A program made the translations under genes and the position numbers. Source: a virus. Taken from it: 64,000 nt of DNA. Shown one piece after another: positions 16,212 to 21,292 of this stretch (position 1 is the stretch's first letter; each line of letters opens with the position of its first letter). Under the pieces are notes generated by a model. That model was not told the DNA's origin. It ran no database searches and worked only from the letters and a program-made list of their open reading frames with translations. The DNA lies in the IMG/VR virus record IMGVR_UViG_3300036792_000284, positions 32,001 through 96,000 of that record; one strand, written 5' to 3'.

Positions 16212-16227
16212 CCACAGCGTGAGCATC
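16212..16227. repeat. Long-range inverted repeat, arm near the 3' end of the tRNA array
   Basis: ccacagcgtgagcatc, exact reverse complement of 21277-21292. Confidence 0.9.
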
Positions 16228-16233
16228 TTCGAG

Positions 16234-16306
16234 TGGCCTCGGCTGGACTCGAACCAGCGACCCACGCCTTAGGAGGACGCGGCTCTATCCACTGAGCTAC
16301 GGGGCC
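16234..16306 (-). tRNA. tRNA-Arg(CCT)
   Basis: Cloverleaf; GCGTC-CT CCT AA-GGCGT. Confidence 0.93.
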
Positions 16307-16307
16307 C

Positions 16308-16383
16308 TGGAGGCGGAAACCGGAATCGAACCGGTGTGCGTCGCTTTGCAGGCGACTGCATATCCAGACTCTGCCATACCGCC
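16308..16383 (-). tRNA. tRNA-Cys(GCA)
   Basis: GTCGC-CT GCA AA-GCGAC; CCA encoded. Confidence 0.95.
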
Positions 16384-16384
16384 G

Positions 16385-16461
16385 TGGTGCGCTCGGAGGG
16401 ACTCGAACCCCCGACCCCTGGTTCCGGAAACCAGTGCTCTATTCCACTGAGCTACGGGCGC
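16385..16461 (-). tRNA. tRNA-Arg(CCG)
   Basis: CTGGT-TT CCG GA-ACCAG; CCA encoded. Confidence 0.95.
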
Positions 16462-16462
16462 T

Positions 16463-16546
16463 TGGTGACGGACGCAGGAATCGAACCTGCCGTGCCGAAG
16501 CAGCCGGGTTACAGCCGGCCCCCATGCCATCTCGGGTCACTCCGCC
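16463..16546 (-). tRNA. tRNA-Tyr(GTA)
   Basis: GCCGG-CT GTA AC-CCGGC; long variable arm. Confidence 0.93.
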
Positions 16547-16547
16547 T

Positions 16548-16622
16548 TGGGGTTGGTAACGAGAATCGAACTCGTATATCTGGAGCCACAGTCCAGCGCT
16601 CTGCCGTTGAGCTATACCGACC
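16548..16622 (-). tRNA. tRNA-His(GTG)
   Basis: CTGGA-CT GTG GC-TCCAG; G-1:C73. Confidence 0.93.
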
Positions 16623-16623
16623 G

Positions 16624-16695
16624 TGGGCGATGCTGGGATCGAACCAGCGACAACTGGTGTGTGAGACCAGCGCTCTTCCGCTGAGCTAAACGCCC
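16624..16695 (-). tRNA. tRNA-Val(CAC)
   Basis: CTGGT-CT CAC AC-ACCAG. Confidence 0.93.
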
Positions 16696-16706
16696 TCGTA
16701 CTTGCG

Positions 16707-16779
16707 TGCCCCCCGGGAGACTCGAACTCCCACCCTCCTGATCCGTAGTCAGACGCGCTATCCGTTGCGCTAGAGGGGC
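16707..16779 (-). tRNA. tRNA-Arg(ACG)
   Basis: TCTGA-CT ACG GA-TCAGG. Confidence 0.93.
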
Positions 16780-16783
16780 AAAG

Positions 16784-16855
16784 TGGGCGTACCTGGGGTT
16801 GAACCAGGGTCCTCTTCCGTGTCGGGGAAGCGCGCTTCCGCTGCGCTACACGCCC
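16784..16855 (-). tRNA. tRNA-Val(GAC), C33
   Basis: CTTCC-CC GAC AC-GGAAG. Confidence 0.9.
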
Positions 16856-16860
16856 ATCGC

Positions 16861-16888
16861 TAGACAGTGGTCAAGAAACAGGTACCGT
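16861..16888 (+). promoter_or_regulatory. Sigma-A-type promoter antisense to the tRNA array
   Basis: TAGACA-N16-TACCGT, 8 nt before GTG 16897. Confidence 0.55.
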
Positions 16889-16896
16889 TTAATCAC

Positions 16897-17031
16897 GTGG
16901 ACACTTTCATCCTGCTGGCCATCGTCTTCGCTGCCGGCGTCTGGGTCGGCATGCGGTTCGGCGGCAGGCGCGCGCTGTGGCGGCTGCACACCGGGAACTA
17001 CAAGAAGATGGTCCGTGACCTCGACCTGTGA
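16897..17031 (+). CDS. 44-aa single-TM membrane protein (not in track)
   Basis: MDTFILLAIVFAAGVWVGMRFGGRRALWRLHTGNYKKMVRDLDL; high GC3 codon use. Confidence 0.7.
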   Translation: MDTFILLAIVFAAGVWVGMRFGGRRALWRLHTGNYKKMVRDLDL

Positions 17032-17032
17032 G

Positions 17033-17108
17033 CGCTCCTGACGGGATTCGGACCCGCGGTCTCCACCGTGACAGGGTGGCGGGGACGGCCAGACTCCCCT
17101 ACAGGTGC
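17033..17108 (-). tRNA. tRNA-Asp(GTC), T-loop TCC
   Basis: CCACC-CT GTC AC-GGTGG; C55; A3:A70 mismatch. Confidence 0.85.
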
Positions 17109-17120
17109 ATGTGTACTGCG

Positions 17121-17195
17121 CTCTCGCGGCAGGATTCGAACCTGCAACCCCCCGATTAACAGTCGGGCGCTAACTGCCAGTTGAGCTACGCGAGA
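17121..17195 (-). tRNA. tRNA-Asn(GTT)
   Basis: CCCGA-CT GTT AA-TCGGG. Confidence 0.92.
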
Positions 17196-17214
17196 TCGCT
17201 TGAGAGGCCTCCGG

Positions 17215-19537: not shown

Positions 19538-19548
19538 ATTGTTACCAG

Positions 19549-19619
19549 CTGGAGTACCTGGACTCGAACCAAGACCGACGGGTTCAGGGCCCGTCACGCT
19601 GCCATTACGCCATACTCCA
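19549..19619 (-). tRNA. tRNA-Gln(CTG), C33
   Basis: ACGGG-CC CTG AA-CCCGT. Confidence 0.9.
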
Positions 19620-19716
19620 CCGTCGCCGGGGCCCTTTGCTCGCCCCGGAGTGACGACCTTGTTCCTCCCCAGGGAGGGGCCGGGCAAGGATTCGCAGGAC
19701 GGCCTTGCCAGCCGTG

Positions 19717-19791
19717 TGGGCGAGGCGGGATTCGAACCCGCACGTTCCGCTGTTTGAGAGCGGCGAGTCTGCCGAGTTGCCCCACTCGCCC
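19717..19791 (-). tRNA. tRNA with CAA (Leu) anticodon but a short variable loop
   Basis: CCGCT-CT CAA AC-AGCGG; 5-nt variable loop AACGT. Confidence 0.8.
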
Positions 19792-19826
19792 TGAGGACCC
19801 GGCGAGCATCGCTCCCCGGGCCCAAG

Positions 19827-19898
19827 TGCGCCGCCAGGGACTTGAACCCCGTTCCCTGGATTAAGAGTCCGGTGCATAGCCGTACATGCTCGCGGCGC
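19827..19898 (-). tRNA. tRNA-Lys(CTT)
   Basis: CCGGA-CT CTT AA-TCCAG. Confidence 0.9.
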
Positions 19899-19992
19899 GT
19901 AACCCGGACCTATTCTGGCCTCACAGCACTTATGCGAGGCGCTGTAGTCTATTTGGCCAGGTGGTTTCCGGGGGCGGTATGCATCCCGCCAG

Positions 19993-20065
19993 AGGGGATG
20001 ACGGGAATCGAACCCGCATCTGCTGATTGGAAGTCAGTCATCCTGAGCCATTGGACGACATCCCC
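19993..20065 (-). tRNA. tRNA-Gly(TCC)
   Basis: ACTGA-CT TCC AA-TCAGC. Confidence 0.9.
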
Positions 20066-20079
20066 GTTGTGTTACTGCG

Positions 20080-20152
20080 TAGGACCTGGAGATTCCGAGA
20101 CTCCGACCTGCAGGGTTTCAATCTGCCGCTCTGCCATCTGAGCTAAGGCCCC
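20080..20152 (-). tRNA. tRNA-Phe(GAA), atypical T-loop
   Basis: GCAGA-TT GAA AC-CCTGC; T-arm GGAGT-CTCGGAA-TCTCC. Confidence 0.78.
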
Positions 20153-20156
20153 ATAG

Positions 20157-20268
20157 TGACAGCTCACTCAGGAAACCACGGGAACCCGGTACCCGAGCCT
20201 CTCCTGGGATGGACGTCTCCACTTCCGCTGACTACCGCTTAAAGGCGGCTCCTGCGTCGGAGCTGTCA
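20157..20268 (-). ncRNA. Structured ncRNA copy B (paralog of 20563-20675)
   Basis: Terminal stem TGACAGCTC/GAGCTGTCA; conserved blocks shared with copy A. Confidence 0.8.
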
Positions 20269-20270
20269 AG

Positions 20271-20342
20271 TCGGGACACAGGGACTCGGACCCCGTCTGC
20301 CTGCTCCCAAAGCAGGCGCGCTAACCCTTACGCGATATCCCG
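20271..20342 (-). tRNA. tRNA-Pro(TGG), T-loop TCC
   Basis: CCTGC-TT TGG GA-GCAGG; C55. Confidence 0.88.
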
Positions 20343-20479
20343 TAGACGGGCGGAGTGCTGCCGTTACACCACAGCCCTCAGCTCCTCGGGGCGGCCTACC
20401 CCGGCGTCCCTGGTGGCCACCAGGTCGGCGCGGAACCTTCGCGAGAGCTGCCGGGGACTTGAACCCCGGACTGCCGCCC
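20343..20479 (-). ncRNA. Circularly permuted tRNA-like RNA 1 (YrlA-like topology)
   Basis: 3' half (anticodon 3' strand, T-arm, acceptor 3' strand) precedes the 5' half (acceptor 5' strand, D-arm, anticodon 5' strand); the halves are mutually complementary. Confidence 0.85.
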
Positions 20480-20558
20480 TGGTCGGGGTGGTGAGATTTG
20501 AACTCACGACCTCTTCGTCCCGAACGAAGCGCGCTCGACCAAGCTGCGCTACACCCCG
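20480..20558 (-). tRNA. tRNA-Pro(CGG)
   Basis: CTTCG-TT CGG GA-CGAAG; CCA encoded. Confidence 0.95.
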
Positions 20559-20562
20559 AAGG

Positions 20563-20675
20563 TGACGGTGCACCCAGTCCGCCCGGGGAACCCGGTACCC
20601 CGGCGCAGGCTCAGGCCATGCGTCCATGCTTCGGCCGACCACCTCTTTGCGGAGGCTCCTGCTTCGGCACCGTCA
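20563..20675 (-). ncRNA. Structured ncRNA copy A (paralog of 20157-20268)
   Basis: Terminal stem TGACGGTGC/GCACCGTCA; compensatory changes relative to copy B. Confidence 0.8.
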
Positions 20676-20688
20676 AGTCGAACTAAGT

Positions 20689-20802
20689 TCACGGCATGAC
20701 CGTCCAGCTGTTGGTCTGCTCGTGCAACTGGATCTCACTGTGGCGAACCCAAGACGGCTCGCCGGGCCCGCCGGTGCAAGCGACGTTTCCCTTGTCTCCC
20801 AT
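20689..20802 (-). CDS. 37-aa small ORF
   Basis: GGGGAGGT RBS 7 nt before ATG; MGDKGNVACTGGPGEPSWVRHSEIQLHEQTNSWTVMP. Confidence 0.5.
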   Translation of the reverse strand: MGDKGNVACTGGPGEPSWVRHSEIQLHEQTNSWTVMP

Positions 20803-20853
20803 GAGGATTACCTCCCCTCAGCAGTCGGCATGTTTTCCACACCAGCTACTACG

Positions 20854-20926
20854 TGGAGCCTGCGGGATTCGAACCCGCGACCTTTTCCGTGCGAGGGAAC
20901 TGCGCTACCAGTTGCGCCAAGGCCCC
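20854..20926 (-). tRNA. tRNA-Ala(CGC)
   Basis: TTCC-CT CGC AC-GGAA; G3:U70. Confidence 0.92.
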
Positions 20927-21061
20927 AGATGCGGCACTCTGCCAATTGAGCTACCGGCCAGCGACAGCCAGACTGACCCCGGCTTTCCGCTAAGCGTACT
21001 GACCTGGTGCTGACTGCCTCGCATGTGACCGGGCAGGACTCGAACCTGCAACCCGCCGCCG
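20927..21061 (-). ncRNA. Circularly permuted tRNA-like RNA 2
   Basis: GCGGC-GGGTT-GCAGG TTCGAGT CCTGC-CCGGTCA, then a spacer, then TGGCCGG-TA-GCTC AATTGGCA GAGT-GCCGC-ATCT. Confidence 0.85.
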
Positions 21062-21134
21062 TGGAACCTGCCGGATTCGAACCGGCGACCTCCTGCATGC
21101 CATGCAGGCGCGCTACCAGCTGCGCCAAGGCCCC
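21062..21134 (-). tRNA. tRNA-Ala(GGC)
   Basis: CCTGC-AT GGC AT-GCAGG. Confidence 0.93.
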
Positions 21135-21276
21135 AGAGTGCGGCAGGCCGGACCGCGGTGTGAACACGGCCCCGCCCGCCACGTCTGAACAGGCAGCTCT
21201 TGTATCCGCTTCTTTCGCTGCCTGCAACCGGGACATAATCAACGGCCCCGGCTGCGGCGGGATGGCGCCCGCCGCT

Positions 21277-21292
21277 GATGCTCACGCTGTGG
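21277..21292. repeat. Long-range inverted repeat, arm near the 5' end of the tRNA array
   Basis: gatgctcacgctgtgg, exact reverse complement of 16212-16227. Confidence 0.9.

Follow-up and report, generated by a model that had tools for sequence, protein, structure and literature searches.

A large uncultured phage of high-GC bacteria carries an array of about 33 tRNA genes that is bracketed by two exactly complementary arms of 16 nt, and these arms, together with the sequence 5′ of the first, resemble elements of the ribosomal RNA (rRNA) operons (rrn) of Actinomycetota. The stretch of DNA that we analyzed, referred to here as the window, is 64,000 nt long and has 69% GC; it comprises bases 32001–96000 of the 124,279-bp IMG/VR virus record IMGVR_UViG_3300036792_000284 (linear, 82% complete). 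We regard it as likely that the arms are the two strands of an RNA leader-trailer helix on the transcript of the tRNA array, derived from or mimicking the helices of Actinomycetota rrn operons. The helix would most likely serve both as an RNase III site and as a Nus-factor platform for the untranslated array, and the phage probably routes its tRNAs through the machinery with which the host transcribes and processes rRNA.

Complementary arms flank the tRNA array

The minus strand is the sense strand of the tRNAs, and on it the 5′ arm (CCACAGCGTGAGCATC, 21292..21277) and the 3′ arm (GATGCTCACGCTGTGG, 16227..16212) are exact complements spaced 5,065 nt apart. ARAGORN places 33 tRNA genes on this strand between 16233 and 21421, and Rfam adds a Tyr-like tRNA at 16467–16546. 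The 5′ arm sits between the first tRNA (Trp, 21349–21421) and the second (Ala, 21061–21134), and the 3′ arm lies between the last (Arg-CCU, 16233–16306) and a terminator-like hairpin some 45 nt beyond the arm. A terminator was found only past the 3′ arm. The complementary segments flank a long stretch of stable RNA, in sense orientation and within a single transcription unit. The enclosed RNA consists of tRNAs only, with no rRNA detected by Rfam. An earlier sequence-only reading of this DNA had described the repeat, the positions of its arms, and an extra UGCU/AGCA pairing past an internal loop; all three are present, and the extra pairing appears in the cofold of the two strands (Table 1). 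Its proposal that the helix encloses the whole array holds in part: 32 of the ARAGORN tRNAs are inside, tRNA-Trp is outside, and the Myrna group of phages described below has tRNAs outside both ends.

The length of the repeat is weak evidence by itself, as the window contains 8 independent perfect inverted repeats of at least 16 bp, compared with 2.6 ± 1.6 in dinucleotide shuffles. The number of such 16-mers expected between the 214-nt leader and the 74-nt trailer is 5.7e-6, and in the 124-kb record the 16-mer occurs at only these two sites when up to one mismatch is allowed. When the 214-nt leader is folded locally, its arm remains single-stranded between strong hairpins (z = −3.1) and would therefore be free for a distant partner.

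The arms change together in related phages

The cultured-phage collection contains no close relative of the window phage. Relatives were found by scanning for the exact 16-mer and with a 654-aa terminase-like protein encoded upstream of the array. They are uncultured phages of about 125–152 kb with syntenic arrays (Trp, Ala, Ala, Pro ... Arg-CCG, Cys, Arg-CCU), in which the enclosed tRNAs always have the orientation of tRNA-Trp and the upstream gene. The arm pair is kept in all 11 distinct related records that have both array ends, with the arms 4.0–6.6 kb apart; the 5′ arm is located past the Trp-tRNA region, and the 3′ arm comes after Arg(CCU), except that it is 1.4 kb further downstream in the L059 group. 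The arms stay while their flanks diverge. The 5′ arm is identical in 8 records, and the 3′ arm is variable at three positions, with transitions every time. In pair counts made by script, the non-Watson-Crick pairs in the core of ten lineages comprised 7 U-G and 4 A-C, with no transversion mismatch.

Some changes are coordinated between the two arms. In L057, whose 654-aa protein is 86% identical, the arms read CCAUAGCG-G-UGAGCAUC and GAUGCUCA-C-CGCCGUGG, with one extra base in each at matching positions (GCGG-U / A-CCGC) that adds a G-C pair to the helix. Outside the 16-bp core, most relatives have 3–8 further pairs past a small loop, giving a total of 20–25 bp in most lineages. These outer pairs differ by lineage: AGAACU/AGUUCU in G003, AAGA/UCUU in L057, GAUAACUC/GAGUUAUC in L063, and UGCU/AGCA in the window. 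A nested extension test gave mean energies of −38.6 kcal/mol for leaders with their own trailers versus −36.2 kcal/mol for swapped trailers (permutation p = 0.011).

More divergent arms are found in cultured phages. A BLAST search with the leader of a relative matched Mycobacterium phage ScoobyDoobyDoo (Myrnavirus) within its tRNA array, and three cultured Myrnavirus phages (ScoobyDoobyDoo, Myrna, and Phabba) share the layout with arms that have changed on both sides. In ScoobyDoobyDoo, tRNAs Trp-Pro-Tyr are followed by CUUGAGAACUCCAUAGCGUAGUACU and then a hairpin. Its arms (CUCCAUAGCGUAGUACU/AGUACUACGCUAUGGAG) form 17 perfect base pairs, and the complement, 2.9 kb downstream, is directly past tRNA-Arg(CCU), as in the window family, with three more tRNAs beyond. 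The arms of Myrna and Phabba (CCAUAGUGUAGUAC/GUACUACACUGUGG) have a C-G to U-A exchange relative to ScoobyDoobyDoo. Across the Myrna group, two or three tRNAs precede the 5′ arm and three or more follow the 3′ arm. Between Myrnavirus and the window family, positions 4, 7, and 10–14 of 16 differ on both strands with pairing intact. Compensated changes at 7 or more of the 16 positions thus mark the arms as a base-paired helix under selection. The sequence-only reading had named conserved complementarity with covarying sequence in related arrays as the check to make, and the 11 records, the inserted pair of L057, and the Myrnavirus changes bear it out.

A hairpin is present 3′ of the 5′ arm in all arrays. 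Its loop keeps the sequence C-R-C-C-A-U/A, and its stem occurs as at least 6 different sequences, fully compensated. Further sites of this hairpin are found at approximately 8036–8056 in L255, at approximately 1774–1795 in L062, and in L258 and L259. The order of boxA-like motif, arm, and hairpin is reminiscent of a lambda nut site.

Several related records depart from the common arrangement. The L059 group (L059 16343–17692; also L060, L064, L065, and L195–L197) is a subgroup with 15 tRNAs in which the 3′ arm lies 1.4 kb past the last tRNA. The gap before this arm apparently contains a gene on the reverse strand that encodes a small membrane protein, and ARAGORN calls no tRNA-Trp ahead of the 5′ arm. 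In a branch whose terminase-like protein has 60% identity (L062 1757–5800 and L063/G006 16087–20462), the whole unit is upstream of the terminase-like gene, not downstream. What has relocated in this branch is the Trp-like tRNA, leader, array, and trailer; since the Trp-like tRNA and leader moved along with the array, the moved unit is larger than the block bounded by the repeat. In L193, the 5′ arm is a variant that is one base longer (CCACAGCGGAGAGCAUC, 10877–10893) and lies on a contig that stops short of the trailer; a scan for the predicted partner of this arm gave single matches only, which were apparently due to chance and were not inspected singly. A pattern scan with the leader block revealed no relative with an altered 5′ arm, the new matches being chance occurrences in coding DNA. 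A metagenome scan with the terminase-like protein yielded many relatives of 50–63% identity without nearby tRNAs and few new complete arrays.

Resemblance to host rRNA operon elements

The sequence-only reading had likened the arms to an rRNA leader-trailer helix, and the analogy proved literal: the arms and their 5′ flank resemble the boxA/boxC region of the Actinomycetota 16S leader and the 23S leader-trailer stem. A scan of 185,579 species genomes with the pattern GAGAACTNNACAGN{3,9}GAGCATC gave at least 120 matches, almost all in Actinomycetota, and 78 of the 80 that were read among the matches listed carry GAGAACU(G/A)CACAGUGGACGCGAGCAUC or a one-base variant. In five loci checked with Rfam, the motif lies 3–90 nt upstream of 23S rRNA. 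Its partner is just past the 23S gene (GTTGCTCGCGTCCACTGTG-TT-AGTTCT; in Streptomyces, GUUGCUCGCGUCCACUGUG-UU-AGUUCU), and the 23S flanks of the host, folded together, form a long helix, with the spacer boxA region in its 5′ strand. This stem has the same architecture as the helix of phage G003.

The Actinomycetota 23S leader-trailer helix and the phage helix share a 5′ strand of the form ...GAGAACU-N-CACAG...GAGCAUC and a 3′ strand of the form G(A/U)UGCUC...CUGUG followed by AGUUCU. In both, a small bulge separates the core from the outer AGAACU/AGUUCU pairs, and both flank several kilobases of stable RNA on one transcript. However, the middle of the core has 4 bp fewer in the phage than in the host (CACAG-CGU-GAGCAUC in the phage, CACAG-UGGACGC-GAGCAUC in the host). 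Unlike the 23S helix, that of the phage is phage-encoded, encloses about 33 tRNAs instead of rRNA, and has an extra conserved hairpin past its 5′ strand.

The 5′ strand also resembles the 16S leader. In Streptomyces, the leader sequence CCTTGAGAACTCAACAGCGTGCC pairs with GGCACGCTGTTG in the spacer; the same leader has also been read as CCUUGAGAACUCAACAGCGUGCC, with its partner GGCACGCUGUUG in the spacer. The sequence CUUGAGAACUCCACAGCGUG of phages G002, G003, and G004 shares 19 of 20 positions with the Streptomyces 16S leader (CUUGAGAACUCAACAGCGUG), and AACUCAACAGCGUG of L062/L063 is an exact match to a segment of this leader. The phages differ from the 16S leader in lacking the 5′ half of the host boxA and in having C where hosts almost always have A (CUCC versus CUCA). 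A boxC-like sequence within the 5′ strand reads AACUC(C/A)A(C/U)AG(C/U)GU in every phage, compared with AACUCAA(C/U)AG(C/U)GUG in host leaders. With nhmmer profiles of the two host motifs, the matches in relatives fell precisely on the 5′-arm sites (E = 0.002–0.01). The motif of the window phage is degenerate (CUUGCUAACUCC), and its nhmmer match is weak (E = 4.5), yet the best in the genome.

We sampled 101 genomes from each of two actinobacterial orders and found the host motif in 67 and 98 of them, respectively, in copy numbers typical of rrn operons. (The sample includes one unpublished genome, G153, on which no claim depends.) Its variants are ACAGCG, ACAGUG, AUAGUG, and AUAGCG, and the phage variants ACAGCG, AUAGCG, and AUAGUG all occur among host rrn leaders. 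Since several variants coexist within orders, the variant that a phage carries does not reveal the clade of its host.

Motifs resembling rrn boxA/boxC also occur in unannotated spacers that head protein-coding operons (for example, CCUUGAGAAUUGAACAGUGGACGCGAAUAUGUGG and ACUUGAGAACUCCAUAGCGUG). Such sites lie at L254 4951–4987 (Streptomyces phage Alone3), L261 760–777 (the HaugeAnator group), and L260 8001–8020 (the linear plasmid of Kitasatospora sp. NBC_01300). Their sequences suggest that mobile elements of Streptomycetaceae use rrn-type antitermination signals more widely.

A model for expression of the array

In rRNA precursors, leader-trailer helices are RNase III substrates whose 5′ strand contains boxC, which overlaps the cut site (PMC10250234). 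boxA recruits an antitermination complex, and its anchoring has been proposed to keep boxC at the polymerase for as long as the trailer has yet to emerge (PMC10250234). In the rrn operon of M. tuberculosis, NusA binds boxC (PMC2724277). If the phage array is expressed in a similar way, the leader motif would be transcribed first and would remain single-stranded between structured hairpins. Host Nus factors would bind the leader as in rrn operons, which would render the polymerase Rho-resistant over 5 kb of untranslated RNA and would hold the leader near the exit channel. Once the trailer emerges past tRNA-Arg(CCU), the helix would form, and host RNase III could cut it to free the tRNA block from tRNA-Trp, the upstream mRNA, and the terminator end. 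RNase P and other host or trimming enzymes would then finish the tRNAs. Even if RNase P has already cleaved at the first enclosed tRNA, a tethered leader could still meet the trailer. From our analysis we infer pairing of the RNA in vivo, RNase III cleavage, the involvement of Nus factors, and antitermination. The window phage (G000) has no RNase III gene and no NusB gene of its own.

Two well-studied systems invite comparison. For the E. coli rrn helix, the rrnTAC model proposes that the intervening RNA is looped out until the trailer emerges (PMC10250234), a feature shared with our proposal; however, the sequences and the boxA-boxC spacing differ, and the E. coli helix is described for rRNA only. 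Lambdoid nut sites (boxA, spacer, and boxB hairpin), which lambda uses to recruit host Nus factors (PMC2724277, PMC10250234), likewise place a host-type boxA-like element ahead of a conserved hairpin on a phage transcript. Unlike the lambda nut, the hairpin described here has an unrelated loop (CRCCAU), its spacer is one strand of a long-range helix, and no N-like protein was identified in the phage. Although we would put it at slightly below an even chance, two distant actinophage groups, the window family and Myrnavirus, may have taken over a complete host rrn expression module for their tRNA arrays, consisting of a boxA/boxC-type Nus platform, an RNase III-cut helix, and an added hairpin that may bind a further factor. 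If so, an rrn-like antitermination complex would transcribe the phage tRNAs, whose processing would resemble that of rRNA.

Several points weigh against a host-derived leader-trailer helix. Pairing and cleavage of the RNA are predicted here from DNA sequence. The 7:4 ratio of U-G to A-C pairs cannot by itself tell which strand folds, and unconstrained duplex energies did not differ significantly between own and swapped trailers (p = 0.14). No sigma-70-like promoter was found in 15900–22600. Bxz1, a cluster C1 mycobacteriophage that has a tRNA array, contains neither an rrn-like motif nor a flanking repeat of at least 14 nt. If the leader is not tethered, cleavage by RNase P at the first enclosed tRNA could sever it before the trailer is made. 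Finally, only the 3′ half of boxA (CUUGAGAACU) is common to host and phages; it is altered in W, G001, G005, L052, L057, and L059, and in the window it has become CUUGCUAACU. Because only this half is kept and is altered even in the window, binding of NusB/NusE to the phage boxA-like element is doubtful.

An alternative that we consider unlikely, and that survives best among those weighed, is that the helix forms in RNA without being an RNase III substrate. It could clamp the ends of the precursor, providing protection from 5′ and 3′ exonucleases or setting the order of folding, or its sole function could be that of boxC within an antitermination site. Such roles would be consistent with the finding that 30S formation in E. 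coli requires the leader-trailer helix in a way that does not depend on RNase III (PMC10250234), with a core of 16–17 bp, which is short for RNase III, and with the presence of the rrn-like motif at the head of protein-coding operons without an obvious trailer in Alone3, the HaugeAnator group, and the Kitasatospora plasmid. However, the host stems that were copied are classical RNase III sites, and the extended helices reach 20–25 bp in most lineages.

The sequence-only reading had also offered DNA recombination as an explanation. On this view, the arms would delimit a tRNA cassette that can invert or move, and a recombinase or transposase would recognize them. The arms do surround a discrete 5-kb block, as do the inverted repeats of invertible segments and transposon termini, and there are HNH-type open reading frames (ORFs) in and beside the array. 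We nonetheless find this explanation highly improbable. In all 14 arrays, the enclosed tRNAs point the same way relative to tRNA-Trp and the terminase-like gene; Pfam identifies no recombinase or transposase beside the array; and there is no target duplication in the sequences just outside the arms (AACT and CAGC). In addition, the mid-site insertion in both arms of L057 and the wholesale replacement of half of each arm in Myrna-type phages suit pairing and not a protein site common to both arms, and in L062/L063 the Trp-leader relocates together with the array.

There is similarly little reason to favor the idea that the arms are two operators for one DNA-binding regulator that loops or silences the array. 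The same asymmetric 16-mer does occur exactly twice per genome, but the regulator would have had to change along with its sites each time, both for the coordinated 1-bp insertion and for the multi-base replacement. Two operators would also leave the similarity to host rrn RNA elements unexplained, and differences of the U-G type are tolerated. The 8 perfect 16-bp inverted repeats in this high-GC window might suggest that the repeat arose by coincidence, or that it is left over from a captured rrn fragment and has no function. Both possibilities are rejected by the local expectation of 5.7e-6, conservation of the pair while its flanks diverge, and the compensatory nature of its changes.

Phage arrays of 30–40 tRNA genes make up several kilobases of untranslated, highly structured RNA and are hence an obvious target for Rho. 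To express and mature such arrays, the answer offered by these actinophages would be to reuse the leader-trailer and nut-like signals of host rrn operons. In full-text literature searches, we found no account of phage tRNA arrays flanked by leader-trailer helices or by boxA/boxC elements of the rrn type; this kind of element is known, and its use by a phage to enclose tRNAs appears to be new. It would extend rrn elements beyond rRNA operons, and the model of a leader that stays at the polymerase until the trailer emerges would gain a second natural test system. Cultured phages that infect the laboratory strain M. smegmatis mc2 155 have the element as well. The motif may help in host prediction, and in phages and plasmids of Streptomyces it marks where operons begin.

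Features of the window and neighboring genes

Table 1. Positions in the window of the helix strands, associated motifs, and the tRNA block
Feature	Position	Strand	Remarks
5′ (leader) strand of helix, CCACAGCGUGAGCAUC	21277..21292	-	boxC-like part of rrn-like motif; unchanged in 8 IMG/VR relatives
3′ (trailer) strand of helix, GAUGCUCACGCUGUGG	16212..16227	-	begins 5 nt past tRNA-Arg(CCU)
Outer 4-bp extension, 5′ side, UGCU	21297..21300	-	outside a 4x1 internal loop; cofold −35.9 kcal/mol
Outer 4-bp extension, 3′ side, AGCA	16207..16210	-	cofold
boxA (3′ half) + boxC-like rrn-like motif, CUUGCUAACUCCACAG	21287..21302	-	overlaps 5′ arm; CUUGAGAACUCCACAG in relatives
Hairpin GCGGCGGG-CGCCAU-CCCGCCGC	21254..21275	-	immediately 3′ of 5′ arm; covarying stem, conserved loop
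tRNA-Trp(CCA)	21349..21421	-	outside helix, upstream; weak Rfam tRNA-clan score
Enclosed block	16233..21134	-	32 ARAGORN tRNAs, Tyr-like tRNA 16467–16546, and ORF 17560–17979
Intrinsic-terminator-like hairpin with U-run	16133..16169	-	downstream of 3′ arm

The 654-aa protein (22417–24381, minus strand) is encoded upstream of the array on the same strand. It has Walker A/B-like motifs without a Pfam match, is 77–89% identical in close relatives, and is probably the large terminase subunit, judging from its sequence. Within the array, ORF 17560–17979 (minus strand) overlaps a region annotated as an HNH endonuclease in cluster C mycobacteriophages, and its Pfam matches are weak and to helix-turn-helix domains only.

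In most relatives, a second rrn-boxC-like motif, GACAACU(C/G)AACAU, abuts the 5′ end of tRNA-Trp (L055 approximately 12840–12866, L188 12085–12097, L062 1625–1636, and L053), and a terminator-like hairpin with a U-run lies ahead of it. In the window, ORF 21420–21812 (minus strand), which relatives do not have at that place, is inserted 5′ of tRNA-Trp just upstream of the array, and the second boxC-like motif is degraded there.

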